The notes under the pieces are model-generated. The model saw nothing but the letters and a program-made list of their open reading frames with translations, was not told the DNA's origin and did not search any database. Made by a program: the position numbers and the translations under genes. Shown in pieces: positions 9,332 through 61,396 of a stretch of DNA of 64,000 nt (positions are counted from its first letter, which is position 1; the number at the start of each line of letters is the position of its first letter). This stretch comes from Bacteroidales bacterium (GTDB lineage: Bacteria; Bacteroidota; Bacteroidia; Bacteroidales; UBA6680): contig JAOARD010000032.1 of the NCBI GenBank assembly GCA_025210735.1, positions 5,345-69,344 of the forward strand. Direction: 5' to 3'.

Positions 9332-9430
9332 ATGTCTAAATTTGTTTTTTAAAGGTCATATGGAACTCGCATAATTTAGTCATTCCTGTGTGTGAGAAAA
9401 GCCCTTACTCATGCTTCGTTTCATCTGTTT
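9332..9430 (-). repeat. ~90-nt hairpin element, copy A
   Basis: Minus strand AAACAGATGAAACGAAGCATGAG...ATGCGAGTTCCATATG...AAACAAATTTAGACAT-ATG. Confidence 0.85.
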
Positions 9431-9583
9431 AATATAATTTTTAGTTGCTATACATAACATGCAGGTTTGATTTTATCAGTTGAGAAGGGGGATTCTGTTT
9501 ATATCAAACTGCATTACGTTTAGATGATGCTAAAAATATATAAATAATATTAGAAACTGATCTGTTAGCTCGTAAATATAAGT

Positions 9584-9955
9584 TTAGCGAGGCAGTTCAC
9601 CACTTCTGTATATGTCCCACATATTGTTCAAAAAACTGTTTCGCTGACCTGATATAAAGTTCTTCGCAATAAGTTTAAAGTCGTCTGATACATATGCTGC
9701 AAGATCGCAATTCAGGGTAATATCATATACCTCATTAAAAGCTATCTGTTCTATCTCGTTTATATCATCAATATCAAATTTGTACTTCTGTGTATATGTG
9801 GTAATATCGTTTTTTGCAATTAACCATCTGTCTTCAAAATCGGGATTGTCTCTATAGTCAAGATAATCGTCGTAATCGTGATTCTGCCATTTCAGGGTCT
9901 TTATAAGCAGGTTTATGTTGCAAATCTCCTCTTTTAATTTAGTAAGGTTTTCCAT
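9584..9955 (-). CDS. Hypothetical acidic protein
   Basis: 123-aa ORF with AAACAG-ATG start context. Confidence 0.6.
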   Translation of the reverse strand: MENLTKLKEEICNINLLIKTLKWQNHDYDDYLDYRDNPDFEDRWLIAKNDITTYTQKYKFDIDDINEIEQIAFNEVYDITLNCDLAAYVSDDFKLIAKNFISGQRNSFLNNMWDIYRSGELPR

Positions 9956-10373
9956 CTGTTTAGAATTTTTAATCTCTTAAGTTGTATATGCACAAAAAAC
10001 AGTTCTTCTTAAAGTAAGAGTGGTTTGGCATTTTGGCTTAAATGGCACTACAGAATTATCTGTAGTGTTTTAATTAGTATAGTGTAATATGAATTAAAAG
10101 TATCCATTTTGAGATTAAAAACAGAGGTCGTATTTATTACTATTTATCTATCGATAAAGGTAATATTAACTATATGGAGTAGAGTGTTGTTATTTATTGT
10201 GCTGAAATTTAAAATCTTGGTTGTAAGATGCCATTGTTGTTGGTTATGGGTTGTGTAGTGTTGTTGTAGGGCAGAGGTAAAGAAGATGTTTATTTTTAGC
10301 TGTGTTAATATAGTAGAGTATTTAACAGATATAAAAGAGGATTAAGATCCCCTTTTATATAAATCAGGTATAA

Positions 10374-10811
10374 TTATTTTTCAGATTTTATATCCAGAGG
10401 GGTTTCAATACTTGCTACTAATTCGCCATTCTTATCTACATATTTATGAACCATAGTAACACCTTTATCCGTAAATATTTCTAATCCGGGATTAGCTTTT
10501 ATTTTCTCTAAGAGTAAGGGTTTCATTGATGATTTAAAAAAGTCAACATCAATAGAGTCTCTATGCAAATTAATAAGACTATAGTTGTACTGAAATATCC
10601 TTCCCTCAAGTATTACTGTATTGTTTAATCTTGTTTCTTTATCCACCTCCATAGGACAGAGTTCATTAACCTCGTTTGAAGCTTGTTTTAGAATATCGTC
10701 AAATGATTGTGGTGCAAAAACAACCAATTTCATAAAAAGGGTTATACCTATAGTTGTTACTATACCGATTATGGCACCATAAATCTTTTTACTGTTCTTC
10801 TCTTTTTCCAT
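10374..10811 (-). CDS. Membrane-anchored hypothetical protein
   Basis: N-terminal TM helix, NELCPMEVDKETRL motif. Confidence 0.65.
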   Translation of the reverse strand: MEKEKNSKKIYGAIIGIVTTIGITLFMKLVVFAPQSFDDILKQASNEVNELCPMEVDKETRLNNTVILEGRIFQYNYSLINLHRDSIDVDFFKSSMKPLLLEKIKANPGLEIFTDKGVTMVHKYVDKNGELVASIETPLDIKSEK

Positions 10812-10871
10812 ACTATTTTATATAAATTGATTTTGTTCTGAGTTAAATCTTGTACCTATAGTTTAATATTA

Positions 10872-11057
10872 TTAACGCGTTTTATTGTCTTTCCACTCTT
10901 TCTCACAATCAAAGCAGTAGTAACTTTTTTTGAATAGAGGTAGTGGAAGTCCCAATAGGAATATAGATAGTAGTGTAGCATAGCCTGCCTGTTTTTTCTT
11001 AACTACATTATCTGAACCACAGTATTTGCAGGTTAGTTCGTTGTTATTTTTCGACAT
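10872..11057 (-). CDS. Small zinc-ribbon membrane protein
   Basis: CKYC...hydrophobic segment...CFDC; 1-nt overlap with the upstream ORF. Confidence 0.65.
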   Translation of the reverse strand: MSKNNNELTCKYCGSDNVVKKKQAGYATLLSIFLLGLPLPLFKKSYYCFDCEKEWKDNKTR

Positions 11058-11797
11058 CAGAAGCTAAAACCCTTTATATTCGCATAACCAACTATTGTTA
11101 TACTATCAGATACTAATTGTATGCTTCTGCTGTTCATATCAACCTTATAAGACCTGCTAAAGAGAGATTTTTCAGATCTGTTTTTATTATCAGTTACATG
11201 TATACTATCGTTGTTTAATATCCAGTTACATACATGTTTATTTGAATTTATACCAGGGAAAATAATAATACCATCTTTCTGCAATGTTATCATCTCAATG
11301 CAGTTGTCGTAACTACTTACAAAAGTAATACCTGTTGTGTGTGGTGCAATCTCTTTTCCATTATGAATAATTTTGTCGACACACCATGAATTTTTTGTTA
11401 ACATTTCTGTCTTTGATGGTATTAGCGAAATGGTAACTGGTATTGCAATTATAATAAGTATTATTGCAATAAGCATTATTACTCTGAATTCAAAAACAGT
11501 ATTACCTATTAATGGTAACTTAGACGTAAACCTGTCAAGAGAGCTAATGGGTTTATTATCAGTGTTAGCTTCTTTTTTAATATATCCTGATTTTATCAAT
11601 ATAGCTTCTGCTGTTTCAGCGTCTTGTACTTTTACCTGTATCTCTACACCGCCAATAGCATTAGAGTAAAAATTGTGAACCTGAGTTGTCAATTCATTAG
11701 TAATCTGTACATCTATACCTTCAGACTCAAGTTTTGCCATTGCCATATGAGCCTCATGAGGATAGGTGAATGAGATAACCGTAATCCAGTCTTGCAT
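11057..11797 (-). CDS. DUF2007-like domain protein with TM helix and C-terminal domain
   Basis: FTYPHEAHMAMAKLESEGI...SNAIGGVEIQV typical of DUF2007. Confidence 0.75.
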   Translation of the reverse strand: MQDWITVISFTYPHEAHMAMAKLESEGIDVQITNELTTQVHNFYSNAIGGVEIQVKVQDAETAEAILIKSGYIKKEANTDNKPISSLDRFTSKLPLIGNTVFEFRVIMLIAIILIIIAIPVTISLIPSKTEMLTKNSWCVDKIIHNGKEIAPHTTGITFVSSYDNCIEMITLQKDGIIIFPGINSNKHVCNWILNNDSIHVTDNKNRSEKSLFSRSYKVDMNSRSIQLVSDSITIVGYANIKGFSF

Positions 11798-11913
11798 ATG
11801 TATGTTTAGTTTATGAATTAAAAAATGTTTTATACGCTTTTAAAGCGTGCATAATTAAAGTGCAGCAAATTTAGTAATATATGTGATAATATAAATTATC
11901 TGCTTACAGATTG

Positions 11914-12615
11914 TTAATATACTTTGTACTCTATGTATAGTTGCTGTTGTACAACCATATTACCTGTATTAACATACATTTTGGTATTACCAATTTCACT
12001 ATCTGCGCTTAATCCTTTTGTTTCAAATTTTAGTGAATTGTTATCATTACTTGCGGATATCTCTATATTACTAACTTGTGTTATAGTCTTATTTTGTTCT
12101 GGTATAGTTGTTATGATTTTATCTGCCAGGCTATTGGCGTTTTCTATTGCTTTTATATAAGCAACCTGATTCAGACTGTCAATTTTACTATGATGATATG
12201 TTAACCCACCAATAGAAAGGTGTTTGTTGATTAGTAATTCAGGGTATAACTCCTCAAGATCTTTTAAATTGCGTATTGTTACATTTACAGATGTAGATGC
12301 ACTGTATCCTATAAAAACACTTGAGCCATTTCGCCAGTTATACTCTTTATTCAGATTAACATTTGTTGTGAGTATATCTTCTTCCAGAATTTTATACTCA
12401 GCAAACTTGTTATTCAGGCTGTTAACTTTCTCTATTAAACAGTTCTTTGCTGTTTTTATATTTTTATCTGTGCACCTTAGGGTTAGATATATACTTGCTT
12501 CGTCAGGTTTAACCTCTACATTACCTGTGCTTTTAAGTATTATTGTTTTATAACTATTATTATTTGTACAGCTAAAAAGGCTGATAACAATAAGAAGTAA
12601 GAATAGTCTGTTCAT
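11914..12615 (-). CDS. SIMPL (DUF541) domain lipoprotein
   Basis: Lipobox LFSC; GNVEVKPDEASI and AIENANSLA pattern. Confidence 0.8.
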   Translation of the reverse strand: MNRLFLLLIVISLFSCTNNNSYKTIILKSTGNVEVKPDEASIYLTLRCTDKNIKTAKNCLIEKVNSLNNKFAEYKILEEDILTTNVNLNKEYNWRNGSSVFIGYSASTSVNVTIRNLKDLEELYPELLINKHLSIGGLTYHHSKIDSLNQVAYIKAIENANSLADKIITTIPEQNKTITQVSNIEISASNDNNSLKFETKGLSADSEIGNTKMYVNTGNMVVQQQLYIEYKVY

Positions 12616-12745
12616 AGTTGTTATAATTTATTTGTTCTATAAGATTTATGAATATTTGTAAGGTTAACAAATATAGATATCAAAAATGGAAAACTGTTTA
12701 GTATTTTGTTACAAAATCTAAACAGTTTCTGAGGTTTTAAACCAA

Positions 12746-13897
12746 TTACTCAACAAAACCCCGTTTAATATTTTCCGGAAGTCTGGCAAGTATCTCATAG
12801 TTCATAGAGTTATTCATTTCGGCAAACGATGAGAACGATATCTCTGTATCGCCATCTTTACCAATCAGAACTGCCTGATCGCCAATTTTAACATTTGGAA
12901 TATCTGTTATATCGCACAGAATCATATTCATATTTACACTACCAATTACCGGAGCTTTTTGTCCGTTTATTAGTATGTGTCCGTTATTACTTAACGATCT
13001 GCTATAACCATTTGAGTAGCCTACAGGTACAATACCCACAACAGTCTCTTTTATTGCCTGAAAGCTCATGCCATAACCAACAAACTCACCCTCAGATACT
13101 CTCTTTACCGATATAAGTTGCGATTTCCAGCTAAGTACGCGCTCAAGAGGGTCTGTTCTGTCCTTTTTACGGTGTATGTATTGAATAAACGACTCTCTGG
13201 TTGGCCAGTAACCATATATAAGTATTCCGGTACGTACCAAATCCATTCTGGTGTCAGGATAGTTTATTGTTGCGGCAGAGCTGGCAACATGTTGTAGTTC
13301 TGAATATATATTGTATTTGTTAAGTAGCTTAACCCTGCTTTTGAATACCTTTAATTGTTTACGTATCCTTGTGTAATTGGCAATGCTTTCAGCACCAGCA
13401 AAGTGGGTTGTAATACCTCTTATAATCAGATGTTCTCTGTTTGCATTAATAATTGCTATAGCCTCTTTAAGTTTACTTAGTGGCAAACCTGTTCTGTTCA
13501 TACCCGTCTCAACATCAATATGAATTATGGCTTTGAGCTCAAGCTCCTTAGCAACTGCTATTGCTTTGTTAAGTTCTTCGAGACCTGAGATATAGAACTC
13601 TATATTGTTCTTTATTATCCACTTATAATCATTATCGTAGACGAATCCGAGAATCATTATGGTAGAATCCTTAGTTCTTGCATAAAAGGCATCCTTGGCT
13701 TCAGGTGATGAATATACAGAGAAGTGATTGATTCCCATGCGTTCCAGAATAGGTACAACAATGTGTGTACCGTGACCGTATGAATTTCCTTTTACAACAG
13801 CAGATATAATTGTCTTTTCGTCTAACAACGATCTGATAAAACCAATGTTCTTCTCAAATGATTTACAGTTTAGTATAATCTCGGAGGTGCTTGTCAT
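12746..13897 (-). CDS. alr: Alanine racemase family protein
   Basis: AVVKGNSYGHG PLP lysine motif, HIDVETGMNRTG, VGYG, GYSNG, NYEI. Confidence 0.9.
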   Translation of the reverse strand: MTSTSEIILNCKSFEKNIGFIRSLLDEKTIISAVVKGNSYGHGTHIVVPILERMGINHFSVYSSPEAKDAFYARTKDSTIMILGFVYDNDYKWIIKNNIEFYISGLEELNKAIAVAKELELKAIIHIDVETGMNRTGLPLSKLKEAIAIINANREHLIIRGITTHFAGAESIANYTRIRKQLKVFKSRVKLLNKYNIYSELQHVASSAATINYPDTRMDLVRTGILIYGYWPTRESFIQYIHRKKDRTDPLERVLSWKSQLISVKRVSEGEFVGYGMSFQAIKETVVGIVPVGYSNGYSRSLSNNGHILINGQKAPVIGSVNMNMILCDITDIPNVKIGDQAVLIGKDGDTEISFSSFAEMNNSMNYEILARLPENIKRGFVE

Positions 13898-13903
13898 TTA
13901 TAT

Positions 13904-14581
13904 CTAAAATTTAAGAATTAATAAAGGGTCAGGGCATATCTCTTTATATATTTTTATCTCTTTTTTACTACATACACCCGGGAAATCACCGTAGTTGTCA
14001 CCTATGTCAGATATAATCTGAAAATGAAGATGAGGTGGCCAGTTCCCATTCTCGGTATTGTTTCCAAGTTCGGCAAATACCTCACCCGAGCAGACGTATT
14101 GTCCTGTTTCGATATTATTTATTGATCCGGCAGATAGATGTCCGTAAAGTGTATAGAATACTTTATCGTCAAGCGAGTGCTCAAGGATTATTGTAGGACC
14201 ATAATCGCCAAAGGTGCTGTTGTTTCTGAAACTGTGAATTTTACCATTAAGAGGGGCTCTTACCGGAGTATACTCATCGCACCATATATCTGTTCCCAGA
14301 TGGATAGTTCTTGCATCGTCACCATCGCCAAAGTGCTCGCTTTTTCTGTATATCATTCTGTCTTCCATATAACCACCAACAGCTATCTTCTTGTTTTGTC
14401 TCTTTAACTCTTCGCTTATATGTTTAGCTAAAGTATCGGTATTGTTGTATACATCTACAGGAACAGATATGTTGTCAACTGACATGTCTAGCTTTAATAT
14501 ATCCTGTTCTGTAATATCAAACAGAAACATTTTGCTGAATCCTTCTCTATGGTTGGTAAGTATATCTTTTAATTGTGTCAT
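13904..14581 (-). CDS. M23 family metallopeptidase
   Basis: HLGTD, TLYGHL, PPHLHFQ. Confidence 0.88.
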   Translation of the reverse strand: MTQLKDILTNHREGFSKMFLFDITEQDILKLDMSVDNISVPVDVYNNTDTLAKHISEELKRQNKKIAVGGYMEDRMIYRKSEHFGDGDDARTIHLGTDIWCDEYTPVRAPLNGKIHSFRNNSTFGDYGPTIILEHSLDDKVFYTLYGHLSAGSINNIETGQYVCSGEVFAELGNNTENGNWPPHLHFQIISDIGDNYGDFPGVCSKKEIKIYKEICPDPLLILKF

Positions 14582-14645
14582 AATATCTTATGTGTTATAA
14601 ATACTATCTCTTTATAGTAAACTCTTGCTGAAAGAAGATAATATA

Positions 14646-15773
14646 CTAATAATTTATCTGATTAATGATCTCTCTGAACATATCTATCCCTGTTTTAATT
14701 ATATCGTCCGGAAAATCATAATCAGGATTGTGCAGAGCCGGTTGATTTATACCGGAGCCTAATCCAAAGAAACCTCCGCTATATTTTTCTGTATAGTAAC
14801 CAAAATCTTCTGACCATTTATATGGCAATTCCAGCTTTTGAGCATTACACCTGTTTATATCAATTGCATTTAGAATGTATTCTGTACACTCCCTGCTGTT
14901 GGTTGTTGCAGGGAATATTTCAGAGTATGTTACATCATATGTTAAACCCTCTCTGTTTGATATATATGCAATAACAGATTCTGCTTTCTCTGTAAGTCTG
15001 TCAAGATCACTATTACTAAAAGCTCTTAGTGTAGCTCTTATCTCTGCATATCCGGGAGATGTACCAAAAGCTATTTCGCCCAGTTTTATATGTATTATGG
15101 TTAACAATATTGTATCAGAGAACTGGTCAGAAGCATCGTCTTTTATCGCCTCAAAACCTTTAATAATATCAGCTATGGCATTTACCGGACTTAAGCCCAT
15201 CTCAGGTTCTGCTGCATGCGATGTTTTTCCGGTTAGTTTAATAGTCATACCTTTAGAAGCCGATGCAAAGGTGTTCTCTCTGTAAAGTATCTTATGTTTC
15301 TCTTCGCCCGGAATATTGTGCAGTGCAAATATATAATCCGGCTCAATATCCTTAAAGTTTATATCCTGAATTATCTCAAAGGCACCTTCGCCGGTCTCCT
15401 CAGCAGGTTGAAACAGAAGTATTACACGACCCTTTTCAGGTGGGTTTTTATGTAACTCATAAGCCAATCCTGATACTATTGCCATATGACCATCGTGTCC
15501 GCACAAATGTGCTGTACCTTCAACCTCTGATTTGTACTCTATATTGTTTATCTCCTGAATTGGCAGACCATCCAGTTCAGATCTTATCATGGTTGTTTTG
15601 CCTTTGTTACCACTGTCAAAAACAAATACACGTCCGGTTTTTCCTAACCTTATTATACTGGTAGGAGAGAGGGGAGATATAAATGACTCTATCTTTTGTG
15701 CAGTATTGTATTCCTGCCCTGATAACTCCGGATTACGATGCAGGTATTGTCGTAGTTGTTTAATCTCATCCAT
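14646..15773 (-). CDS. M20D family amidohydrolase
   Basis: LHRNPELSGQE, HLCGHDGH, FQPAEE, SEDF, LHNPDYDF; start placed at MDEIK, overlapping the upstream stop. Confidence 0.9.
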   Translation of the reverse strand: MDEIKQLRQYLHRNPELSGQEYNTAQKIESFISPLSPTSIIRLGKTGRVFVFDSGNKGKTTMIRSELDGLPIQEINNIEYKSEVEGTAHLCGHDGHMAIVSGLAYELHKNPPEKGRVILLFQPAEETGEGAFEIIQDINFKDIEPDYIFALHNIPGEEKHKILYRENTFASASKGMTIKLTGKTSHAAEPEMGLSPVNAIADIIKGFEAIKDDASDQFSDTILLTIIHIKLGEIAFGTSPGYAEIRATLRAFSNSDLDRLTEKAESVIAYISNREGLTYDVTYSEIFPATTNSRECTEYILNAIDINRCNAQKLELPYKWSEDFGYYTEKYSGGFFGLGSGINQPALHNPDYDFPDDIIKTGIDMFREIINQINY

Positions 15774-17211
15774 TGTAGCTTTGTTTAATGTTTGTAAATA
15801 GTGCAACAGTAATGTATATAAGAGCCGATGCAGTTATACCAAATATATTAGCATCAAGACCAAGTGGTAACTCATCATATGCAGTTGTTAGTATAACTGT
15901 TACTGAACCACCGGTTATCATAGATAATATTGCTCCTGTTGCATTTGGTCTTTTACCGTATAGTGCAAACAGAACCGGAATAAATAGCCCCGATACCATA
16001 AATGCATAAGAGTATAACATCAGATCAAGAACATTTGTCATGTTTGATGCTAATAACAGAGCAAGTGCACCAATTGTAATGGTAATTATCTGTGATATTC
16101 TAAGCTGCGATCCGGCATCCTTTCGGAATCGGAATATTTTACTTAGTATATCTGTCTGCATATTACCTGAGGCAGCCATAAGACAGCTATCGGCAGTTGA
16201 CAGTATTGCAGAGAAGTATGCCGATAACATCAGTCCCATTAACCCTACAGGTAATACAGTATTCAGCAGTACGGGCAACCCCATCTCAGCATCCATAACC
16301 GATTGTGCGGTATAACCCGATGCTGCAAACATACCCCGCTCCATAGCCACTCTGGCAAGTAACCCGAGAAACACACCCATAAATGCCATAAGAGGCCACT
16401 CAAACAGCCCGGCTATAAACCAGGCTCTCTTTGCCTGTTTAATACTCTTTGATGCATATATTCTCTGATACAGAGTCATACCCACAAACCATATAGGAAT
16501 TATTGTTACAGCCCAGTTTACTATCTTTTGCCACGATATATTTGTTATAGATAGAAACTCATCACCAAGAGTAGACCGTATAGCATCTAATCCGCCAACA
16601 GCATAATACGATATTGGAATACCGATAAGAATAAGTCCTGACATAAGTATAATCCACTGAATGGTATCGGTATATATTACAGCTTTAAGCCCGCCAATGC
16701 CTGTGTATATAACAGCTATAATGCCCATAAATATAAGAGCAGTCTGTATATCTATTTGCGGAAATGTTGCAGATGCAAGCTTGGCACCTGCCAGTAGCTG
16801 TGAGCTTGTGAAGCCAATATAGCCTATTGCAGATATAATACCTGCAATAAGTGCTACCTTGCTGTTATAGAAGTGTTCAAATATCTGCGGGAACGTAAAG
16901 AACTTGTGTTTAGATGATAACCTGCTGATTACCGGGATTAATATTACAGCACTTATCCATGCTCCAACCAAACCTGTAAACAGCATCCACGAACCTGCCA
17001 CTCCAATCAGGAAACCCAATCCGCCCAGACCAATTGAGAAGCCACCGCCAACATCTGTTGCCACAACAGATAATCCAATGTGCCAGCTACCCAACGATCT
17101 GCCACCAACATAATAGTCGTCTATATTCTTATTTTTTCTGAAAAAGTATACACCTACACCCAACATCAGGGCAAAATATATTATAAAGATTATTATATCG
17201 ATAATATTCAT
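15766..17211 (-). CDS. Sodium:solute symporter (PutP-like)
   Basis: DYYVGGRSLG, GGLKAVIYTDTIQ, SAILSTADS; many TM helices. Confidence 0.92.
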   Translation of the reverse strand: MNIIDIIIFIIYFALMLGVGVYFFRKNKNIDDYYVGGRSLGSWHIGLSVVATDVGGGFSIGLGGLGFLIGVAGSWMLFTGLVGAWISAVILIPVISRLSSKHKFFTFPQIFEHFYNSKVALIAGIISAIGYIGFTSSQLLAGAKLASATFPQIDIQTALIFMGIIAVIYTGIGGLKAVIYTDTIQWIILMSGLILIGIPISYYAVGGLDAIRSTLGDEFLSITNISWQKIVNWAVTIIPIWFVGMTLYQRIYASKSIKQAKRAWFIAGLFEWPLMAFMGVFLGLLARVAMERGMFAASGYTAQSVMDAEMGLPVLLNTVLPVGLMGLMLSAYFSAILSTADSCLMAASGNMQTDILSKIFRFRKDAGSQLRISQIITITIGALALLLASNMTNVLDLMLYSYAFMVSGLFIPVLFALYGKRPNATGAILSMITGGSVTVILTTAYDELPLGLDANIFGITASALIYITVALFTNIKQSYNG

Positions 17212-17285
17212 ACAAATAATATTAAATAGCAGATACTTAAATGTATAGAATATTTGAATGAAATCCTAACAGTTATGGGGTTTAG

Positions 17286-18218
17286 TTATTGTATAGTTAA
17301 TACTATTTTACCCCTTGCATTGCCGCTCTCGCTAAGGTTAAAAGCATCAGCGAGATCTTCAAAATTAAAGATTTGTCCAACAATAGGTTTTAGATTCCCA
17401 TTTTCTATTAAATCGGATATTAATTTTAGTAATTTTCCGTTTGGTTTTATTGATAGAAACTCTGCTCTGATACCGTATTCTATTGCGCTATTTTTATCTG
17501 GTAGTGTATTTACTGCTACTAATATACCGTTCTGTTTTAAAACTTTATACGATCTCTCCTGTACGTTATAGCCAATGCTGTCTAAAACCACATCTACACT
17601 TTTACCAAGAATATCTTCGAACTTATACCTCTTATAATCAATAATCTCGTCAGCTCCTAATGATTTTAGAAACTGCTCGTTTTCTGATGAAGCAGTTGTA
17701 ATTACATAAGCACCTATGTGTTTTGCAAGTTGTATAGCTATACTTCCTAAACTTCCTGATCCGGCATGTATTAAAACTCTCTGGTTTGGCTTTAGTTCTG
17801 CAATTTTAAACAGTGCTTCCCATGCAGTTATGCATGCAATTGGTAAGCTTGCTGCTTCTTCAAAAGTAATTGATTGAGGCATATGCGCAATCTCATACTC
17901 TTTTACAGCAATATATTCAGCATGAGAACCATTGTTAGTTACTTCCGGACGACCGTAAACTTTATCGCCTATTTTAAACTGTTTTACATCTTTTCCGGTT
18001 TTTATAACAACTCCGGCAAAATCCCATCCTAATGTAATTGGAAAATCTATGGGAATAAGATCTTGTAACTCTCCGTTTCTTATTTTCCAATCTAATGGAT
18101 TCACAGACGATGCGTGAACTTTAATCAGCATCATACTGTTGTCTGTTTCAGGTAAATCAATTTCTTCAATATTCATTACTGAACTTGTCCCGTAGTTATT
18201 AATTCTTAACGCTTTCAT
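17286..18218 (-). CDS. NADP-dependent oxidoreductase (MDR / quinone oxidoreductase-like)
   Basis: VHASSVNPLD, LGWDFAG, HAGSGSLG, GKIVL. Confidence 0.9.
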   Translation of the reverse strand: MKALRINNYGTSSVMNIEEIDLPETDNSMMLIKVHASSVNPLDWKIRNGELQDLIPIDFPITLGWDFAGVVIKTGKDVKQFKIGDKVYGRPEVTNNGSHAEYIAVKEYEIAHMPQSITFEEAASLPIACITAWEALFKIAELKPNQRVLIHAGSGSLGSIAIQLAKHIGAYVITTASSENEQFLKSLGADEIIDYKRYKFEDILGKSVDVVLDSIGYNVQERSYKVLKQNGILVAVNTLPDKNSAIEYGIRAEFLSIKPNGKLLKLISDLIENGNLKPIVGQIFNFEDLADAFNLSESGNARGKIVLTIQ

Positions 18219-18315
18219 CTGTTATAATTGTTTCTTCATTTGCCAGATGGAACTCGCATTTATAATCATTTCCGTGTGTGTGAATGGCCATTCTCATGCT
18301 TCGTTTCATCTGTTT
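18219..18315 (-). repeat. ~90-nt hairpin element, copy B
   Basis: Minus strand AAACAGATGAAACGAAGCAT...CACACACAC...ATGCGAGTTCCATCTG...CAATTATAACAG-ATG. Confidence 0.9.
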
Positions 18316-18350
18316 ATATTTTTCCTTATTTTATACATAATTTATTCATT

Positions 18351-19770
18351 GCTCAAACGCTAAGAGAGTCAAAATTTCATCTTCATGCTCTACGGCAATA
18401 GTCTTGTGTGCTTAGCGTTAAAGTCAGTTTCATCTACGGGGTTTCTCAATCTAATTGAGATATTTCAACCTCCAGAAATAATCGACCTTTATGCAACGTG
18501 TTGCGAGACATCTACTCCTAAATCTCTTAGCTGTCGCAGATATCTCTTAATTTGTTTGTTCTTATTCTTATTTTCCAAAAAATCGCATCCTAACTCCTTA
18601 TAGGATTCTTTGTTTTGTAGAATGAAGTAGGCTGCTATAATTATTTTATGTCCTACTGCAACTAAGGCTCGTTTTTTTCCTCTTCTTCCTACTAAACTAT
18701 CGTATTTACTCCGTAAATAGGTTCCTTTTGTTCGTGTTGCTGCCCATGCACATTGAATTATCATAGACTTCAACCATTTGTCTCCGTGCGTGGTTCTTGA
18801 ACTTTTTTTTTACCTGCACTCTCATTATTTCCCGGACATAACCCTGCCCAAGAAGCTAAATGCTGTTCAGTTGGAAACTGCTCCATATTGTTTCCTATTT
18901 CCGATAGTATATATGTTGCAGATTCTTTATCAACTCCTGGAATTGTAGATAACAACTCGGCATCAAGTACCATCTCGTTTTCTTTTAATTTGTTGTCTAT
19001 CTCATTATCCAATTCGCTGATTAAATCCTCTTTATCTTTTATTGAACGTTTTACTGTTTTCAGCATGAACTTGTGGTGCTCTGTCAGGTTACCTGTTAGA
19101 GCAGTTATTAGTTCTTGCTCTGAAGCTTTCATCTTTCCATGACGTAATTTAGCCAGTGATTCAGGATTGCCTTCTCCTTCTATCATCGCATCAATGATCT
19201 TTGTAGCTACTGCTCCTGATAAATTACTTACAACTGAAGATAGTTTGATATTAGCATCTTCCAAAAACTTATGTATTCTGTTTTTCTCAGATGATATTTG
19301 CTCTATGATACGACGTTTATAGCGAGTTAAATCTCGCATCTCTCGTACTGGTCTTTTCGGTATGAAACTACCTTTTAGAAGTCCTGCTAGTAAGAGTTTT
19401 GCTATACGTCTGCTATCTTTCTTGTCTGTTTTATTTCCCGGTATGTTTTTTAAATGACGTGCATTGACTAAAATAATTTCGAAATCTTCCTCTAAGATAT
19501 TGTACACTGGCTTCCAATAGACCCCTGTACTCTCCATTGCAATATGGGTTACGTTCAAGGATTTCAACCAATTCCGTAATTGTTGTATTGATTCTGTAAA
19601 TGCTCCACAACTACGCGTCTCTGTTTTTATTCCTTTTCCTTGCACTGTTGAAACCAAAACTGATTTATGGATATCTATTCCACAACCTCTTTCTATTACC
19701 TGATCGAATTCTATTTTATCCTGAGCCATAGTTGTACCGTTTTTCTGCCCGTAAGTTACATCGTAGCATT
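18351..19770 (-). mobile_element. IS110-family insertion sequence (~1420 bp)
   Basis: Transposase flanked by a short upstream end and a ~140-nt downstream non-coding end; AATG (CATT on +) at both junctions, 18347-18350 and 19767-19770; no terminal inverted repeats evident. Confidence 0.7.
18489..19729 (-). CDS. IS110 transposase split by a -1 frameshift at an A9 run
   Basis: DEDD domain CGIDIHK, AMESTGVYW, NKTDKKDS; second domain TIPGVD...WAGLCPGNNESAGKK continues in the -1 frame as KSSRTTHGDKWLKSMIIQCAWAA. Confidence 0.92.
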
Positions 19771-19835
19771 TATAATCATCCTCGTGTGTGTCTAAAATTT
19801 AATCGTCATGGATGTTTCATCTGTTTATAATTGTT
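19767..19835 (-). repeat. ~90-nt hairpin element, copy C (interrupted by IS110)
   Basis: Minus strand ACAATTATAAACAGATGAAACATCCATGA...CACACACGAGGATGATTATAAATG, then the IS begins. Confidence 0.8.
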
Positions 19836-19929
19836 TTTCGGGACAAAACTAGCTCATCTACTTCTATTGTTCTTTTCCTATATTGCTATTATGTAGTAAT
19901 GTGTATATATGATTCTTTAGAGAACAGGA

Positions 19930-26478: not shown

Positions 26479-26575
26479 GCGGATGAAACGTCCATGATGA
26501 TTAAATTTTAGATACATACGAGGGTGGTAATAATACGGAGTTACTTCTGACAAATAAAAAAACAATTATAAACAT
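26479..26575 (+). repeat. ~90-nt hairpin element, copy D (fills the whole intergenic gap)
   Basis: GATGAAACGTCCATGATGATTAAATTTTAGA...CTGACAAATAAAAAAACAATTATAAACAT-ATG; closest to copy C. Confidence 0.8.
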
Positions 26576-27124
26576 ATGAAGTTCTGGAAATTAGTTAAAA
26601 CATCATTGAAAGGAGATGTTATCATAGAAAATTTTAAATGTACTAGCGAATGGGAGGAGAAGGAATTTTCTGGAGATAGCTTATTGAGTGCAGATTCTCC
26701 TATTATTCAGATAAGAAATAAGAGTGGTAAACTAAGAGATTTTTTAATAGGGGGAACTTCTATTCCGGTTGTTTCACAGAAAGTTAAAGAGCTATTACAA
26801 AAACTAGATGATGTAAGTTATCTGGAATTCATACAATTAAAAACAGATGATATTAACATTTCTGAACCTTATTGGGCTATCAATATTAAGTCTATAATTA
26901 AGTGTTTAGATTATGATAAATCTGAGTATACAGTTCACGAAAAGTCAGGTAAAATTCGGAGAATAGAAAAGATGGTACTAAGAGATGAGGTAATTGGAGA
27001 TAGAAATATTTTCTATATAGAAGAGGACCCTGTTAATGTTTATATATCAGATAAATTAAGGATAATTTTTGCCGAAAAAGAGATTACCGGATATTCCACA
27101 GAAGAACTATATGGTATAGTATGA
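26576..27124 (+). CDS. Imm11/DUF1629-like immunity protein
   Basis: PVVSQKVKELL..EFIQL..YWAINI..CLDYDKSEY..VYISDKLR..ITG. Confidence 0.7.
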   Translation: MKFWKLVKTSLKGDVIIENFKCTSEWEEKEFSGDSLLSADSPIIQIRNKSGKLRDFLIGGTSIPVVSQKVKELLQKLDDVSYLEFIQLKTDDINISEPYWAINIKSIIKCLDYDKSEYTVHEKSGKIRRIEKMVLRDEVIGDRNIFYIEEDPVNVYISDKLRIIFAEKEITGYSTEELYGIV

Positions 27125-27220
27125 AACGAAGCATGAGAATAATCATTCACACACACGAAGATGATTATAAATATGAGTTCCATATGACAAATGAAAAAAC
27201 AATTATAAACAGGTGAAACA
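27118..27220 (+). repeat. ~90-nt hairpin element, copy E
   Basis: TATGAAACGAAGCATGAGAATAATCATTCACACACACGAAGATGATTAT...GAGTTCCATATG...CAATTATAAACAG; the upstream gene's TGA lies inside ATGAAAC. Confidence 0.9.
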
Positions 27221-38338: not shown

Positions 38339-39073
38339 TTATTTACCACATCCGGCTCCACATCCTGAAGATATAGCCTTTGTTGCTGCTGATACTATAT
38401 CTGAAACAGAGTTGGTTTTATCAAATACACCTGTTATCTGTCCTTGTGTATTTATAACAATAATAGTTGCCTTCTTAATGTTTGATATCTGAAGTGTATT
38501 TACCAGATTTTTCTCTTTTTCGCTCTCAGTATTTACAGATATAACAGATGTGTTTTTCAGTTTTTCGTGTGCACTATTTGCAAGTTTTGTAACGCTGTCT
38601 TTTTGAGTTGTTTTACTATTGTATACAACTATTATAGATACCTTTTTGCGGTTAATATTTCTGATTATCTCAGAGTATGTAGGTGTGGGTATACTATTAT
38701 TTAGATTATCTGCTGTAATTTGATTGGCAAGAACACCTTTTATAAGGTTACTATATTTGTCAACAATAAGAATAGCCGGTTTATCTATATTTCTTAAACC
38801 AAACTTCTTTACAAATGATTTATTCTCTTCTGATGTTATATCAAGCTCTATTACAGATATATTTTTGTTGCTGCTCAGAACACTATTTGCTTTTTTAAGA
38901 GCATTCTGTTTATCATCATTGTTCTTTTTATATGCAACAATTATTACTGTATTTCCTTTAGCCTGAGCTTCTGATATCTTTGTTATATTATCTGTTTTGT
39001 ACATACCTGCACAGTTTAAGTTTATAAATATTGCTATAACAAGCATTATAGTTGCTGAACTGAATTTTTTCAT
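38339..39073 (-). CDS. Exported protein with two probable thioredoxin-like folds lacking CxxC and a C-terminal CGAGCG
   Basis: Signal peptide; two repeated alpha/beta units (E.K.FV..F, EK.LV..L); Cys-containing tail. Confidence 0.55.
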   Translation of the reverse strand: MKKFSSATIMLVIAIFINLNCAGMYKTDNITKISEAQAKGNTVIIVAYKKNNDDKQNALKKANSVLSSNKNISVIELDITSEENKSFVKKFGLRNIDKPAILIVDKYSNLIKGVLANQITADNLNNSIPTPTYSEIIRNINRKKVSIIVVYNSKTTQKDSVTKLANSAHEKLKNTSVISVNTESEKEKNLVNTLQISNIKKATIIVINTQGQITGVFDKTNSVSDIVSAATKAISSGCGAGCGK

Positions 39074-39189
39074 ACGTTTATTTATCTTTTAATGATCTGA
39101 TGAAACTAGCATTTACAATCATGTTTATGTGTAAGGAGTTCATTGCAAATGCTTTGTTTAATTATAATATTGTTTTGTATCTGTGTTTT

Positions 39190-39939: not shown

Positions 39940-40110
39940 TTAATTACAGCATGAATTCTGAGATTTTTTGCTCTTATCATCCTGATCAAATTCTTCGATT
40001 TTAAAATCGCAACATCCTGATGAGGCTTTGCTCTTTTTTTCATCTTTTACCTCTTCAAACTGCACATTGCAGCATCCTGAGGCTTTTTTTGATTTTTTGA
40101 AAATTTTCAT
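39940..40110 (-). CDS. Unannotated 56-aa Cys-Cys repeat peptide
   Basis: MKIFKKSKKASGCCNVQFEEVKDEKKSKASSGCCDFKIEEFDQDDKSKKSQNSCCN; below the ORF-track cutoff, co-oriented with the cluster, AAACAG-ATG start. Confidence 0.8.
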   Translation of the reverse strand: MKIFKKSKKASGCCNVQFEEVKDEKKSKASSGCCDFKIEEFDQDDKSKKSQNSCCN

Positions 40111-40536
40111 CTGTTTATTTTTTCTTTTTAATGGTCAGATGGAACTCGCATTTATAATCATCCTCGTGTGTGTGAATGACCATTCTCATGCTCGTTTCAT
40201 CTGTTTATAATTGTTTTTTATTTGTCAGATAGAATTCGCATTAAGATTGTATTTGTTTACTTGCAAAGTTTTTCTTATGCTCGTTTTATCTGGCTATAAT
40301 TTATTTTTTAAGTTTTAAGAAAGAACTTACATGAGTAGGCTGTTTGATGTTCGAAAAGACTTTTACTCATGCTCGTTCATTTCTATGTGATTATATATTA
40401 TTGTATTAATGTTTTTTTATTCAGTAGATTGTAGATTTGCTTATCTGTTATAATTATTCTCAATTGCTCGATTGAACTTATACCTACAACCACATAAGTG
40501 TGTAAAGAAATACTTTACTCATGCTTCGTTTCATCT
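40111..40536 (-). repeat. Tandem array of four ~90-nt hairpin elements (copies F, G, H, I)
   Basis: Left-arm AAC triplets (GTT on +) at 40194, 40283, 40375 and 40528. Confidence 0.85.
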
Positions 40537-41012
40537 TTATTAGTTGTACAGCATGAGCTCTCTTTTTGAATGGTTATAGGCTCTTTTTTTGTAACTGTAG
40601 TGCAGCACTTATCTGTTGTTTGTGGAGTTTCAGCAGGCTTGTTATCCATAAAGAATGTTGATATTACTGCTATAACGCCTATCCATAACATTGATTTTGC
40701 AAGCCAGCCTGATCTCTTTTTCTTCGGATCGCAACAACTACTCTGTTCTTTCTGAGATTCAGTATCGCAGCAAGAACCTTTGTCTTTTTTAAGATATATG
40801 ATATAGAACCCATATATAAGTGCAACAACAGCTAATACTGTGAATAGTGTATGATACTCAGCAAAAAAGCTTAGCTGAGAAGCTCCTATACCAAACCATG
40901 CAAGAAAAGCTGCAATTAAAGGAAACCCGCAACAACTTATAATTCCTAAAAAGGCTAAAACTGATGATAGTAGTCCTACAAGCGATGATGTGACAACATT
41001 TTTTTTGTTCAT
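40515..41012 (-). CDS. MerT/MerC-like metal(loid) transport membrane protein with CC-rich loops
   Basis: GIISCCGFPLI in the first TM region; GSCCD, SSCCD, KCC and SCC motifs. Confidence 0.7.
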   Translation of the reverse strand: MNKKNVVTSSLVGLLSSVLAFLGIISCCGFPLIAAFLAWFGIGASQLSFFAEYHTLFTVLAVVALIYGFYIIYLKKDKGSCCDTESQKEQSSCCDPKKKRSGWLAKSMLWIGVIAVISTFFMDNKPAETPQTTDKCCTTVTKKEPITIQKESSCCTTNKDETKHE

Positions 41013-49129: not shown

Positions 49130-50560
49130 TCAATTAATTTTGTGATTTTTTGATAATCTGTTAATCATACCTCTGAATACTATTCCGTGCATAGGAAGTA
49201 CAGAGAACCAGTATAAACGCCCTAAAAGACCTTTTGGTCTGAATGTGGCAGTTTGTATAAGGTTATTACCATCCGTTCTGAACTCTAACCATGCCTCGCC
49301 GGGTAGTTTCATCTCTGCAAACAGGAGCAAGCGTCCCTCTTGTTTATTAGCATACAGAACACGCCAGAAATCAAGAGTATCGCCCGCATGTATTTTGTTT
49401 TGGTTTGTACGGCCTCTTCTTAATCCTACACCACCAATCATTTTATCTAACAGCCCTCTTAAACGCCACATACTGTTTGCATAGTACCATCCTGTTTTAC
49501 CTCCAATACTCCATATTTTATCAATAGAGCTTTTATAGTCAGACATCTCTCTTTTGCGAACATCCTTATAACATCCGAACTCCGGAACCTTTATATAGTC
49601 TGATATTTTGTAGTTTAACCTTCCGCTTATTGTTGAATCTTTCCAGCTTGATACAATCTCATTCTGCTCAATCTTCTTAAAAGCTCCCTTTACAGCTTCT
49701 TTGTATGTTAAAGGGGTGATGTTTAATATATCATTTATCTCTCTGCTTTTTGCAATAACCTCTATCTTCATACTGTCTACCAGTGAGGTTGCAAGTTTGT
49801 ATGAGGTTGATGTTACAAAGTATAACCAATATGACGATAGTTTTGGTGTCATTACAGGTACAGTGTATATTAGTCGTTTAAGACCTCTTACCTCTGCAAA
49901 TGATAGGAGCATCTCTTTGTATGTCAGGATTTCATCTCCGGCTATATCGTAACTGGAGTTGTACGTCTCCTGATTTCCGGCTAATCTTGTAAGTATTTTT
50001 ATTACATCGCGTATTGCAATTGGCTGGCATTTTGTTTTTAACCATTTAGGAGTAACCATTATCGGAAGTTTCTCAACCAGATCGCGAATAATCTCAAACG
50101 ATGCACTACCAGCTCCAATTATTATACCTGCACGTACTGTGGTTAGCGAGTATTCTCCCTTCTCTAACTCAACCTCTACACTTTTTCTTGATTTAAGATG
50201 TTTTGATAGTGTTTTTGAGTTTACAATACCACTAAGATATATCACCTGTTTTGCATCTGTTGTGTTTATGGCCTCTCTGAAGTTTATAGCAGATATCTTC
50301 TCCAGTTTGTCGTAGTTTCTTGATACAGACATTGAGTGTACAAGATAGTATGCAACATCTATATCTTTCGGGATGTTGTTAAGGGTCTCTCTCTTTGTAA
50401 GGTCGTTCTCTATTATCTCTATTCTGTTTTTTACAGATTCTTCCAGATTGAATTTTCCTCTATCTCTTACACAGCATATAACCTGATATCCGTTCTCTAT
50501 CAGAACAGGTAGTAATCTTTTTCCTATATATCCTGTAGCTCCTGTCAGAAGTATTTTCAT
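49130..50560 (-). CDS. NAD(P)-binding SDR-like protein with DUF2867 (YbjT-like)
   Basis: TGATGYIG, YYLVHSM, IGGKTGWYY, AEMKLPGEAWLEF. Confidence 0.9.
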   Translation of the reverse strand: MKILLTGATGYIGKRLLPVLIENGYQVICCVRDRGKFNLEESVKNRIEIIENDLTKRETLNNIPKDIDVAYYLVHSMSVSRNYDKLEKISAINFREAINTTDAKQVIYLSGIVNSKTLSKHLKSRKSVEVELEKGEYSLTTVRAGIIIGAGSASFEIIRDLVEKLPIMVTPKWLKTKCQPIAIRDVIKILTRLAGNQETYNSSYDIAGDEILTYKEMLLSFAEVRGLKRLIYTVPVMTPKLSSYWLYFVTSTSYKLATSLVDSMKIEVIAKSREINDILNITPLTYKEAVKGAFKKIEQNEIVSSWKDSTISGRLNYKISDYIKVPEFGCYKDVRKREMSDYKSSIDKIWSIGGKTGWYYANSMWRLRGLLDKMIGGVGLRRGRTNQNKIHAGDTLDFWRVLYANKQEGRLLLFAEMKLPGEAWLEFRTDGNNLIQTATFRPKGLLGRLYWFSVLPMHGIVFRGMINRLSKNHKIN

Positions 50561-50648
50561 CTATCTGTTTTTTTCTATTAATGTTCAGATGGAACTCGCA
50601 TTTTAATCATACCAGCCTGTGAGAGTTACTCAAATATTCGTTTATCAG
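50561..50648 (-). repeat. ~90-nt hairpin element, copy J
   Basis: Minus strand ...ATGATTAAAATGCGAGTTCCATCTG...AAAACAGATAG-ATG; left arm degenerate. Confidence 0.75.
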
Positions 50649-59383: not shown

Positions 59384-59428
59384 AATGAGTTGTTTTGTTT
59401 AATGATTACTATAAATATATTGTTCTGG

Positions 59429-60091
59429 TTAAAGTCTTGCTATTTTTTTTATATCTCTGTTCTCAAGATGTTTAAGTTCCTGAGGATGCACTGCTATGTT
59501 TATCATGGCTTTGCCAAGCTGACTACTTGTAATTACTGAATCGGATTTTTTAAGTAGCGGAAATATAGGTTTTGTTAATGTATAAAACAGATTGTACCAT
59601 CCGGTTCTTGATTTAATACCTTTTTCAGGAAGTATAATTCCCGGACGGAATGCGTATGCATCTTTAAACCCTATTGATAGAATTCTGTTTTCTGTTTTTC
59701 CTTTTACTCTTGCCCACATAATTTTACCTTTTTCGGAACTATCAGTACCTGCACCGGATACATAGTTAAATACCGTGTTTGGGTTTAGTTCTAGTAGTGT
59801 TTCAGCAAGAGCATTGGTCATTGTATAGGTAATATGGCTGTATTTGTCTTCGTTTAATCCAAGTGCAGATATACCCATGCAGTGAAAACATATATTATAA
59901 CCACTCAAATGATTTTTTATAGAACTGAAATCGCTAAAGTCGTTATGTACTATCTCATTTAGCTTTGGGTGTGATATGTTTATAGACTTTCGGTTTATTA
60001 CCAATACCCTTTCAACTTCTGGACTGCTAATACACTCTAATAGAGCAGCCTTACCTACCATACCACTTGATCCTGTAATAATAACCTTCAT
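59429..60091 (-). CDS. NAD-dependent epimerase/dehydratase family protein
   Basis: TGSSGMVG, YVSGAG, WARVKGKTEN. Confidence 0.88.
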   Translation of the reverse strand: MKVIITGSSGMVGKAALLECISSPEVERVLVINRKSINISHPKLNEIVHNDFSDFSSIKNHLSGYNICFHCMGISALGLNEDKYSHITYTMTNALAETLLELNPNTVFNYVSGAGTDSSEKGKIMWARVKGKTENRILSIGFKDAYAFRPGIILPEKGIKSRTGWYNLFYTLTKPIFPLLKKSDSVITSSQLGKAMINIAVHPQELKHLENRDIKKIARL

Positions 60092-60276
60092 CTGTTTACA
60101 ATTTGGTTTATAGCTTCAATTGTTTACTGTTATTAAACAAATTGATTGATACAAAGTTAAGGTGAATCGATGGGAGAGATGTATATATATTACAGAATAA
60201 AGAATACTTTTTACAGGAGGGGGGAGTATTTGCTGGCACGTATGTGTACATGCCAGCATATTAAATAGAGAATTAA

Positions 60277-61335
60277 CTATTTACCAAATATGATGGCAAG
60301 GTTAAAAAAGAATCCACGATTATTAATAGTAACATCTGAATAGTTACTAACATTATTCAAGCCAAAGTCGTATCCAACAGAAGCTTCAAAGCTGCCTAGT
60401 TGTTGAGTTGCACCAACCTTTAAACCATAATCATATCTATTAAACGTATTACCATCAGATCCGAATTTTATATCAGACTTTTCATAATCGTCTTTATATT
60501 TGCCATTAATGGCATATGCTGCATATGGTTCTATATTTAATCTGAATGGTTGTCTGCCTCCTGCAATCTTAAACCTGAATGTATTGATACTTAAACGTAA
60601 CGGAACTTCAACATAGTTGAGTCTTATAGATTCGTCAGAATCTTTTGATCTTGCTCCTTTTGAAGAGAATGCAACACCCGGTTGAAATGTAAAGTGTTTT
60701 GCTGTGTAGTCTAAAAATAGCGATACATTTAAACCGACTTTGGTATCGTTGTAATCATTAATATTATCTGTATTAAAGTTGTTGAAGTTCATGCCTAATC
60801 GTATCCCAGGTTTCCATCGACTATTAGATATGTTGTACATAAACTTGTTGAACAGAGTAGGTTTAACACGGTTTTTATTTACTCTTTCCTGAACAACAGA
60901 ATTTGCTACAGCTTTATCAATGGGTTTAGTCCACTCGGGGATGTTTATAAATTTCTTGAACTGGTTTAATTTCATTGAACCATCGTGGCGTTTAATAACT
61001 TCCTCTTTATGGTTTATAAAGATAAATTTGGGTATGCTAACACCCTTTTCTGAGTTATACTTAAAATATATCTCTTTATTGTTTCCTTTATCAACATCTA
61101 GTTTAAGGGCTATAAAATCTCTGTTTACGCTGTTATGTATCTCTTCATCTGTAAATATGTATTTGTTCATATACTGGCAGGGACTACACCATTTGGCTGT
61201 AAAGTATAACAGCAATAATTTGTTTTCACTTTTAGCTTTTTGTAAAGCCTGATTGTAATCTCCGGTATAGAAACTAATAGCTTTAATTTGTAAAGTCATT
61301 AATACCAGAATTGTTAGTAAAATTATTTTTTTCAT
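60277..61335 (-). CDS. Thioredoxin domain fused to an outer-membrane beta-barrel domain
   Basis: FTAKWCSPC, SIP; then GIRLGMN, FQPGVAFSSKG, LNYVEVP, DYGL, YDFGL. Confidence 0.8.
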   Translation of the reverse strand: MKKIILLTILVLMTLQIKAISFYTGDYNQALQKAKSENKLLLLYFTAKWCSPCQYMNKYIFTDEEIHNSVNRDFIALKLDVDKGNNKEIYFKYNSEKGVSIPKFIFINHKEEVIKRHDGSMKLNQFKKFINIPEWTKPIDKAVANSVVQERVNKNRVKPTLFNKFMYNISNSRWKPGIRLGMNFNNFNTDNINDYNDTKVGLNVSLFLDYTAKHFTFQPGVAFSSKGARSKDSDESIRLNYVEVPLRLSINTFRFKIAGGRQPFRLNIEPYAAYAINGKYKDDYEKSDIKFGSDGNTFNRYDYGLKVGATQQLGSFEASVGYDFGLNNVSNYSDVTINNRGFFFNLAIIFGK

Positions 61336-61396
61336 ATGTCTAAATTTGTTTTTTAATGGTCATATGGAACCCGCATTTTAGTAATGTTGGTTTCAT
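61336..61396 (-). repeat. Short variant of the hairpin element, copy K
   Basis: ATGAAACCAACAT-TACTAAA-ATGCGGGTTCCATATG; 42 of 44 nt identical to the gene-proximal end of copy A. Confidence 0.85.

Follow-up and report, generated by a model that had tools for sequence, protein, structure and literature searches.

A dispersed hairpin repeat of about 90 nt that probably inserts at, and rebuilds, gene starts in a Bacteroidales genome

Why should one hairpin repeat of about 90 nucleotides (nt) lie, time and again, directly in front of genes that appear unrelated? The question is raised by a stretch of 64,000 nt of Bacteroidales DNA, hereafter the window, which covers G000:C62:5345-69344 of a draft genome (G000; 5.63 Mb, 34.5% G+C, 76 contigs). 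An initial annotation, made from the sequence alone, listed about 11 copies of the repeat and proposed either a recombination site that captures and shuffles genes while supplying a translation start, or a structured mRNA leader. We favour, and consider probable, the explanation that the repeat is mobile DNA: a non-autonomous element with a hairpin, only 88-93 nt long (mostly 91 nt), that inserts 3' of (A)TGAA and rebuilds the start. Oriented insertion 3' of (A)TGAA, without duplication of the target, is seen directly, and the element ends in its own ATGAA behind an A-rich spacer.

The repeat family itself was borne out. In the window the left-arm motif was found 21 times (up to two mismatches; 4.33 expected; 21 reached in 0 of 100 shuffles) and the right-arm motif 12 times (up to one mismatch; 2.79 expected; 0 of 100 shuffles). 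A hidden Markov model (HMM) built from 131 strict G000 copies and run with nhmmer (E<=1e-3) identified 346 copies in the genome. They form 286 loci (240 with one unit, 33 with two, 12 with three and 1 with four), which lie scattered among housekeeping genes. Ten of these copies lie in the window. They recover nine of the places listed initially (9332, 18219, 26479, 27118, three within 40111-40536, 50561 and 61336) and add one at 39065-39162 on the (-) strand, while position 19767 and the second unit of the array (40380->40287) are visible by eye and fall under the threshold. All ten are co-oriented with the gene on their 3' side, as had been claimed. Genome-wide the same holds for 323 of the 343 copies that have such a neighbour (94%), and the median gene start lies 7 nt inside the element match.

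In G000 the consensus reads ATGAAAC-GA(A)-GCATGAG, a variable stem-loop, ATGC-G(G)A-GTTCCAT(C/A)TG, an A-rich spacer of about 25 nt, and TA(A/G)ACA(G/T)ATGAAA. Inspection of the sequences agrees with the consensus, the A-rich spacer (put at about 30 nt) and the ATGAAA start described before, and also with the compensatory changes CAGATA/TATCTG (40289->40196) and TATG/CATA (27121-27186). Left and right ATG are spaced 91 nt apart in 63 of 158 copies, and nearly all the remaining copies fall within 88-93 nt. Conservation sets in abruptly at (A)TGAAAC and stops just past ATGAAA; the outer triplet of the left arm, initially counted as part of the element, is therefore flank. Among 198 first or single units the bases preceding (A)TGAAAC are weakly biased to CA(G/T), with G at -1 in 44% of the left flanks against 12% at ordinary starts, and of the target (A)TGAA itself the A is present in 174, the T in 190 and the G in 191 of these 198 units. 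In 156 of 197 terminal units with an intact tail (79%), the ATG of the element opens an open reading frame (ORF) of 60 codons or more. Stop codons of upstream genes were said to fall in or beside the left arm, which holds at 26479, 27118 and 40534; genome-wide, a long co-oriented upstream ORF stops inside the element in only 7 of 95 first units, and in the remaining 88 it stops 6 to 148 nt before the left ATG.

The ends of the element are best seen in a gene-free block of complex repeats (G000:C16:19900-21700) with three empty and three filled paralogous sites. The empty sites read ...GGGCTGAA|GGCCC, or in a longer view TTACGGGCTGAA|GG(C/T)CCAG, whereas the filled sites read ...GGGCTGAA-AC...CAGGTTAA-(A/G)GC, in full TTA(C/T)GG(G/A)CTGAA-AC-GAAGCAT...AAACAGGTTAA-(A/G)GC(C/T)CA. 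Their comparison fixes both ends within 2 nt (the shared AA). Since the tail, GTTAA, differs from the target, CTGAA, the tail is the element's own and there is no target-site duplication. In a copy at a gene start, accordingly, the left ATGAA is the old start and the right ATGAA is element-derived. The block (locus L138) consists of repeats of about 560 nt, 23-nt direct repeats (TTTTGTCACATTGAGCG..GTCG) and small G+C-rich hairpins, and hosts an element subfamily that lacks the ATG; a similar block is found at G000:C5:19800-25400. Rfam gave no match for the C16 block and in the C5 block only sub-threshold matches to Acido-Lenti-1, outside the element.

Gain and loss of single elements could be followed by comparison with G002, a congener that is syntenic with parts of the window at 77-93% identity. 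The copies in the window are the following.

9327..9424, (-) strand: full unit (nhmmer 91.4 bits; sequence; Pfam)
18214..18309, (-) strand: full unit (nhmmer 91.6 bits; Pfam; RNA fold -17.8 kcal/mol, z -2.58)
19766..19820, (-) strand: left half-unit, cut after ...ATAAATGC, an IS110-family element directly next to it (sequence; under the nhmmer threshold)
26483..26580, (+) strand: diverged unit (nhmmer 49.4 bits; Pfam)
27121..27217, (+) strand: unit with its tail mutated to CAGGTGAA (nhmmer 82.9 bits)
39065..39162, (-) strand: weak extra copy, ending where gene 38339-39073 starts (gene start -8 from the match end; nhmmer 31.6 bits)
40106..40534, (-) strand: head-to-tail array, four units of different subfamilies (sequence; 3 nhmmer matches; Pfam)
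50556..50647, (-) strand: degenerate unit, left TGATAAAC (nhmmer 34.2 bits; Pfam)
61331..61396, (-) strand: internally deleted unit, left ATGAAAC 61396->61390, right arm 61370->61361 (nhmmer 33.6 bits; Pfam)

Unit 9327..9424 is absent at G002:C105, where the same upstream flank runs directly into ATGAAG, the start of the gene. Similarly, unit 50556..50647 is absent at G002:C81, where ...ACTAAATGAGA starts the gene, and the copy at G000:C20:12050 is missing in G002, both alleles continuing with ATGAAGATATTACATAC. The reverse is found at G002:C171:88971, which carries a copy while the orthologous site on G000:C20 is empty. In all four orthologous cases the same genes flank the site on both sides and the element alone differs. 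Shared sites may also be occupied differently: G002:C182:11739 and G000:C38:67279 carry different subfamilies at one such site, and at another a single unit (G002:C171:76320) stands against 3-4 units (G000:C20:16892-17172).

These comparisons bear directly on the proposal of an integron-like attC site that bounds mobile gene cassettes. The layouts are indeed alike: in both, an imperfect hairpin lies between stop and start and contains AAC/GTT boxes, a GA(A)/GA spacer that is left unpaired, another paired box and a terminal structure that varies. Moreover, the four-unit array coincides with one break in synteny, with about 8 kb of genes found only in G000. The match in gene order to G002:C81 is regained at window position 40514, at the left arm of the array. 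In G002 a tRNA gene directly follows the MerT-like gene, whereas the tRNA gene of G000 (32297-32380) is separated from the array by about 8 kb with 10 ORFs (window 32297-40540); this difference in gene content is bounded by the tRNA gene and the repeat array. On the other hand, the arms ATGAAAC/GTTCCAT fit only the AAC/GTT of the attC consensus RYYYAAC/GTTRRRY, a mismatch that had already been pointed out, and the element ends at TGAA|AC and after the tail ...TTAA(A), not at G|TT. Its 286 loci are scattered, and the polymorphisms, four out of four, comprise the element only and never a unit of gene plus element. An integron integrase (TIGR02249) was over the cut-off in none of five element-rich genomes (G000, G002, G003, G030 and G038; best score 124.6 bits against 265). 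We therefore regard an attC site as very improbable. Of the recombination-site proposal as first put forward, the DNA-level mobility or recombination and the supply of a start codon and an A-rich leader are supported, whereas gene capture and shuffling are not. The observation itself is confirmed, its cassette reading is not supported, and its RNA reading, to which we now turn, is possible but secondary.

The hairpin is real, because the inner stems differ between lineages but stay complementary: the stem beside the internal loop varies across other genomes (GCATGACTGAA, GCATGATTTTT, GGCATGATAAAA, ACCCATGAT, ATCCAT). In two of these sequences the AAC/GTT pair is replaced by AAT/ATT, and in some lineages Watson-Crick pairs take the place of the purine-rich GA(A)/GA internal loop. 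The three outer bases of the right arm follow another partner. In the G000 copies they are Watson-Crick complementary to the tail in 237/266, 241/265 and 212/265 cases, and to the left flank in only 129/266, 184/265 and 141/265; the odds ratio of a match to the arm is 27.6 for the tail and a weaker 2.5 for the left flank. The variable position of this arm-tail helix is C-G in 141 and A-T in 67 copies, with 19 and 18 discordant. The same was seen in other taxa, in a covariance-model alignment of 73 matches (71 distinct) from other genomes: 98.3% of the cells of the arm-tail helix pair, one pair being AU in 40, CG in 24 and GC in 2 sequences, and the observed score was reached in 0 of 500 shuffles, whereas for the three outer pairs between left and right arm, 37, 19 and 25 of the 67-68 sequences with letters in both columns show no pairing. 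Among 33 copies without a tail ATG, 15 have a fully compensating arm (TATCTG/CAGATA, AATCTG/CAGATT, AACCTG/CAGGTT). The arm-tail pairing is therefore a property of the element and not of the start codon itself. Composite copies, in which the loop of one unit contains a second unit, recur in G000 and in a Marinifilaceae record.

Pairing between the right arm and the start could also point to a cis-acting RNA switch in 5' leaders and intercistronic regions, a repeat that would have spread because the control that it exerts is useful. In such a switch the right arm, as an anti-start, would pair either with the left arm, which mimics a start, leaving the real start free, or with the CA(G/T)AUG start, closing it. 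Several observations agree with this. Unguided RNAalifold of 27 copies gave the right-arm/start helix as the consensus, with one pair CG in 17 and AU in 7. Single-sequence folds gave either state: well-kept copies form a long hairpin with the start free (z -6.0 for the best copy, -2.6 and -3.1), and others fold no better than shuffles or prefer a short hairpin together with a helix in which the start codon is closed. Sense folds are slightly more stable than antisense folds (by 1.6 kcal/mol on average; 134 versus 59 of 195), 94% of the copies are oriented with the gene, and placement at starts exceeds the expectation from ATGAA sites. Copies are also contained in contigs from RNA libraries, in which carry-over of DNA is possible; the RNA data comprise four metatranscriptome runs only, with small shares (0.09, 0.06, 0.01 and 0.01), as contigs. 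Those on window positions 7001-20000 cover element copies and then run into unlike sequence, which shows neither transcript ends nor expression, and parts of the window without such a contig are uninformative.

Against an RNA switch, the downstream genes have no common function, copies are gained, lost and replaced at orthologous sites, and the arm-tail pairing is kept in no-ATG subfamilies in gene-free DNA. Several window copies fold like shuffles (z -0.37 to +0.69 as RNA), and no match came from Rfam: at the gathering threshold the window gave only a tRNA, and five copies gave 0 matches at E<=10. Two arguments that the initial annotation had used for RNA are weak. Predicted G-U pairs are not enriched on the sense strand (399/3596, versus 434/3533 antisense), with no difference between the strands, and the strongest covariation is also found in copies without a start codon. 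We therefore think an RNA switch unlikely as the reason for the repeat. Effects on translation are, from the sequence, likely as a side consequence of insertion: the old start could be occluded, the new one possibly sequestered, and a short upstream ORF created. Read from the left ATG, this ORF stops 4 nt short of the new ATG in 44 of 158 copies, and in 17 of 158 its stop is the overlapping ATGA; termination followed by reinitiation at the new ATG is conceivable. In most other copies this ORF ends inside the hairpin and its frame is not conserved. A leader peptide was rejected as the main function, since there is no conserved peptide; unit lengths also vary (88-93 nt).

In the mobile-DNA explanation that we favour, the target (A)TGAA is most often the start codon of a gene plus the first bases of codon 2. 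The element consists of a 5' part (AC-GA(A)-GCATGA, stem-loop, TCATGC-GA-GTTCCAT(C/A)TG) and a 3' part (the A-rich spacer of about 25 nt, ending in CA(G/T)ATGAA). Upon insertion the old ATGAA turns into the outer left arm of the hairpin, pairing with GTTCCAT, and the terminal ATGAA of the element serves as the in-frame start of the gene, with a fresh A-rich leader and the gene intact. Serial insertions at the regenerated start account for the head-to-tail arrays of unlike units. The arm-tail covariation suggests that head and tail are contiguous in an intermediate, either a circle or a tandem junction, in which the joined CA(G/T)ATGAA-AC would complete a 10-bp stem with GTTCCAT(C/A)TG; the arm would for that reason covary with the tail and not with the flank. 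Alternatively, the arm may guide recognition of both cleavage and target sites by base pairing, as in IS200/IS605 elements. A more far-reaching version can be formulated, a "portable start module", in which the anti-start arm GTTCCAT(C/A)TG pairs with (CA(G/T))ATGAA in single-stranded DNA, the intermediate is a single-stranded circle, the enzyme is possibly host-encoded, and in the mRNA a three-way switch between old start, anti-start and new start resets about 5% of the genes. We put this forward as speculative, and the odds are against it.

Several findings weigh against the mobile-DNA explanation, the first being that no mobilising enzyme could be linked to the element among those checked (Y1_Tnp, Y2_Tnp, integron integrase and RAYT). 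Y1_Tnp occurs in 33 of 41 relatives, whether or not they carry the element, and the Y1 genes of G000 are flanked by unrelated G+C-rich hairpins (C31) and not by element ends. A RAYT match over the cut-off was obtained for 5 of 13 genomes that have the element and for 4 of 28 that lack it (Fisher p 0.11); G038 has 36 element matches yet no RAYT match and only a sub-threshold Y1. The RAYT genes of G000 are flanked by another inverted-repeat unit, of about 150 nt, that contains TT(C/T)CATACATGAAAC. Folding of the single-stranded DNA is weak (-3 to -7 kcal/mol, z +0.7 to -1.05, four copies), which speaks against a simple hairpin of DNA. Placement is a further problem, as targeting by sequence alone does not suffice: 79% of the terminal units lie at starts, against 32% expected from the non-genic ATGAA sites at predicted starts (1200 of 3714). 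The excess implies a wider target, selection that removes other insertions, or a preference for insertion at starts. All counts of placement are limited by the crude ORF map of G000 (4,286 non-overlapping ORFs), and because the copies are mutually related the p-values overstate the support. Finally, in 5 of 7 comparisons the first base behind the junction ATGAA/CTGAA is A in the filled allele where the empty one has G, a change that plain cut-and-paste would not predict.

This last change would fit an alternative in which there is no dedicated enzyme at all, and a portable 5' region spreads by recombination or annealing at a short start sequence (TAAACAGATGAAA), together with gene conversion. 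Such a process would convert the base after ATGAA from G to A and could place different subfamilies, or 1 versus 3-4 units, at one orthologous site; the enrichment of CA(G/T) in the left flanks, with the excess of G at -1, is in line with it as well. The C16 paralogs, however, represent a clean insertion at CTGAA|GG, where homology does not extend past TGAA and the tail is different. In addition, conservation of the arms reaches from Bacteroidales to Niastella, whereas the stems are variable, a pattern that fits recognition by a conserved protein better than spread driven by homology. Enzyme-free spread therefore seems to us quite improbable.

The loci of the candidate enzymes deserve a description of their own. 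Two near-identical Y1 transposase genes of 151 amino acids, flanked by G+C-rich hairpins, are located at G000:C31:38450-43390, and two RAYT genes (NF047646, 102 bits) at G000:C1:28300-29700 and 69950-71255. The repeat that flanks the latter has fewer than 20 motif matches genome-wide. The RAYT and Y1 loci are thus repeat systems separate from the element in the same genome. Across the 8 RAYT loci that were compared, the shared 7-mer ATGAAAC is confined to G000. Another motif next to the RAYT genes of G000, TTCCATACATGAAAC, was considered and rejected: it was not found at the RAYT loci of G002, G003 and G030, and its 18 matches in G000 are a number comparable to the 8+9 of the controls. Y2_Tnp (IS91-type) had no match in G000, G001 and G002. 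An autonomous copy was sought by pairing orphan arms at 130-6000 nt, which gave nothing convincing, and no transposase was found beside three truncated copies, where the ORFs encode a Fic protein and three proteins without a Pfam family.

By comparison with known systems, the mobile element that we propose would work most like a non-autonomous element of the IS200/IS605 type. In IS200/IS605 and the related palindrome-associated transposable elements (PATEs), insertion is oriented, 3' of a short specific sequence and without target duplication, and the hairpins are imperfect; cleavage on the left is in the flank and on the right at the end of the element itself, both being recognised by base pairing beside the foot of the hairpin. 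The present element likewise shows oriented insertion 3' of a 4-5-nt target without duplication; its hairpin, too, is imperfect, and its ends would be recognised in the same manner. It differs in having one long hairpin instead of two short subterminal ones, with the target inside the stem, in that no Y1 transposase with matching ends was found, and in its target, a start codon that it regenerates. With REP/REPIN sequences (repetitive extragenic palindromes) it shares a high copy number, a palindromic, non-coding and intergenic nature, occurrence singly or in small clusters, and the presence of RAYT genes in the genome. Unlike them, its orientation is fixed with the gene and its position is at the start codon, and the RAYT genes are flanked by other repeats. 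Correia elements of Neisseria, which have terminal inverted repeats and a TA duplication, and Rickettsia palindromic elements, which insert in frame inside genes, are comparable as small non-autonomous repeats that are co-transcribed or gene-sparing and form RNA hairpins; to our knowledge, neither targets and rebuilds a start codon. A classical MITE, derived from a DDE transposon, differs by its target-site duplication and by inverted repeats at both termini. The targeting and rebuilding of start codons is thus the unusual property of this element among small non-autonomous hairpin elements.

The genes behind the window copies are, by Pfam, mutually unrelated, and no common function was seen among downstream genes, either in the window or at the loci of other taxa. 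ATG 9331 of unit 9327..9424 (left ATGAAAC 9424->9418, right arm GTTCCATATG 9366->9357, tail GACATATGAA 9336->9327) is the start of a gene for a 512-amino-acid thioredoxin-like lipoprotein (7793-9331), and ATG 18218 of unit 18214..18309 (left ATGAAAC 18309->18303, right arm GTTCCATCTG 18253->18244) that of a 310-amino-acid zinc-type dehydrogenase. ATG 50560 of unit 50556..50647 starts an NmrA/DUF2867 gene, and ATG 61335 of unit 61331..61396 a thioredoxin/outer-membrane-protein (OMP) beta-barrel gene. Two copies lie between small genes at window positions 25861-27685 on the (+) strand, one of which encodes an Imm11 immunity protein. That gene starts at ATG 26576 of unit 26483..26580, the upstream ORF stopping 4 nt before GATGAAAC; its TGA stop is the left ATGA of unit 27121..27217, and the next gene starts at ATG 27221.

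The units of the array are 40534->40440, 40380->40287, 40289->40196 and 40200->40106; with one of the four under the nhmmer threshold, the array scores below a quadruple. Its first unit begins within the 3' end of the MerT/MerC-like gene (40515-41012), whose last four codons and stop are element-derived (window 40515-40540, (-) strand). In G002 this gene end reads ...GATGAGAAGATTAAGTAA, so the site of insertion was an ATGA inside the gene, close to its 3' end. The last unit provides the ATG (40110) of a small ORF (window 39900-40110, (-) strand) that is rich in Lys and in Cys-Cys pairs (MKIFKKSKKASGCC...). It is located beside the MerT-like gene and a glutathione S-transferase (GST)-like gene, and a metal-handling context for this Cys-rich ORF is possible, as judged from its neighbours.

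The half-unit at 19766..19820 is interrupted by another element, which is not part of the repeat family.

18770..19729, (-) strand: IS110-family (DEDD) transposase gene, inserted in the half-unit (PF01548 2e-26; PF02371 3.5e-14)

The IS110-family element spans window positions 18320-19838 on the (-) strand and is single-copy in G000. The 87-nt junction between it and the half element (window 19752-19838) is 100% identical at four places in G002, three of them at contig starts; the insertion sequence is therefore multi-copy in G002 and always lies beside the same half element.

The element is not confined to the two congeners. Of 41 genomes sampled from the order, 13 have matches to a covariance model (R1, E<=0.001), with at least 94 in G002, 52 in G030, 36 in G038, 11 in G001 and 10 in G003; of 140 other genomes, sampled evenly across the phylum, 3 gave a match (E<=1e-5, stricter filters). 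An exact-pattern scan of species-representative genomes gave at least 57 stretches, and among those listed are Bacteroidales, Dysgonomonas, Prevotella (metagenome-assembled genomes, MAGs), Marinifilaceae, Paludibacter, Bacteroidia, Niastella and one contig of a Vallitalea MAG. In these loci 50 of 73 matches precede an ORF of 60 or more codons whose start is the ATG of the element, including two Niastella loci and one Paludibacter locus, and the downstream proteins are again unrelated (lipoproteins, dehydrogenase-like and kinase-like N-termini). Plasmid and phage collections contained no match to the element, and the exact pattern was found in one contig of IMG/VR. No description of the element was found in the literature, also when strings of the element itself were used; this does not cover supplements with repeat catalogues.

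If the explanation that we favour holds, about 230 of the roughly 4,300 genes of G000 would owe their start codon and leader to a mobile element, and hundreds of unrelated genes would share one common leader, in a phylum that does without Shine-Dalgarno pairing. The family extends to several Bacteroidales lineages and to Niastella. Annotation of gene starts would be affected, as old ATGs and short upstream ORFs would lie just before the real start. The dispersed 90-nt repeats are also possible substrates for recombination and may in this way contribute to genome plasticity. A rule of this kind, insertion 3' of ATGAA with the start restored, would interest developers of genetic tools for the Bacteroidota. 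For selfish DNA, a start-codon target that is rebuilt by the element itself would be an unusual way of avoiding harm.

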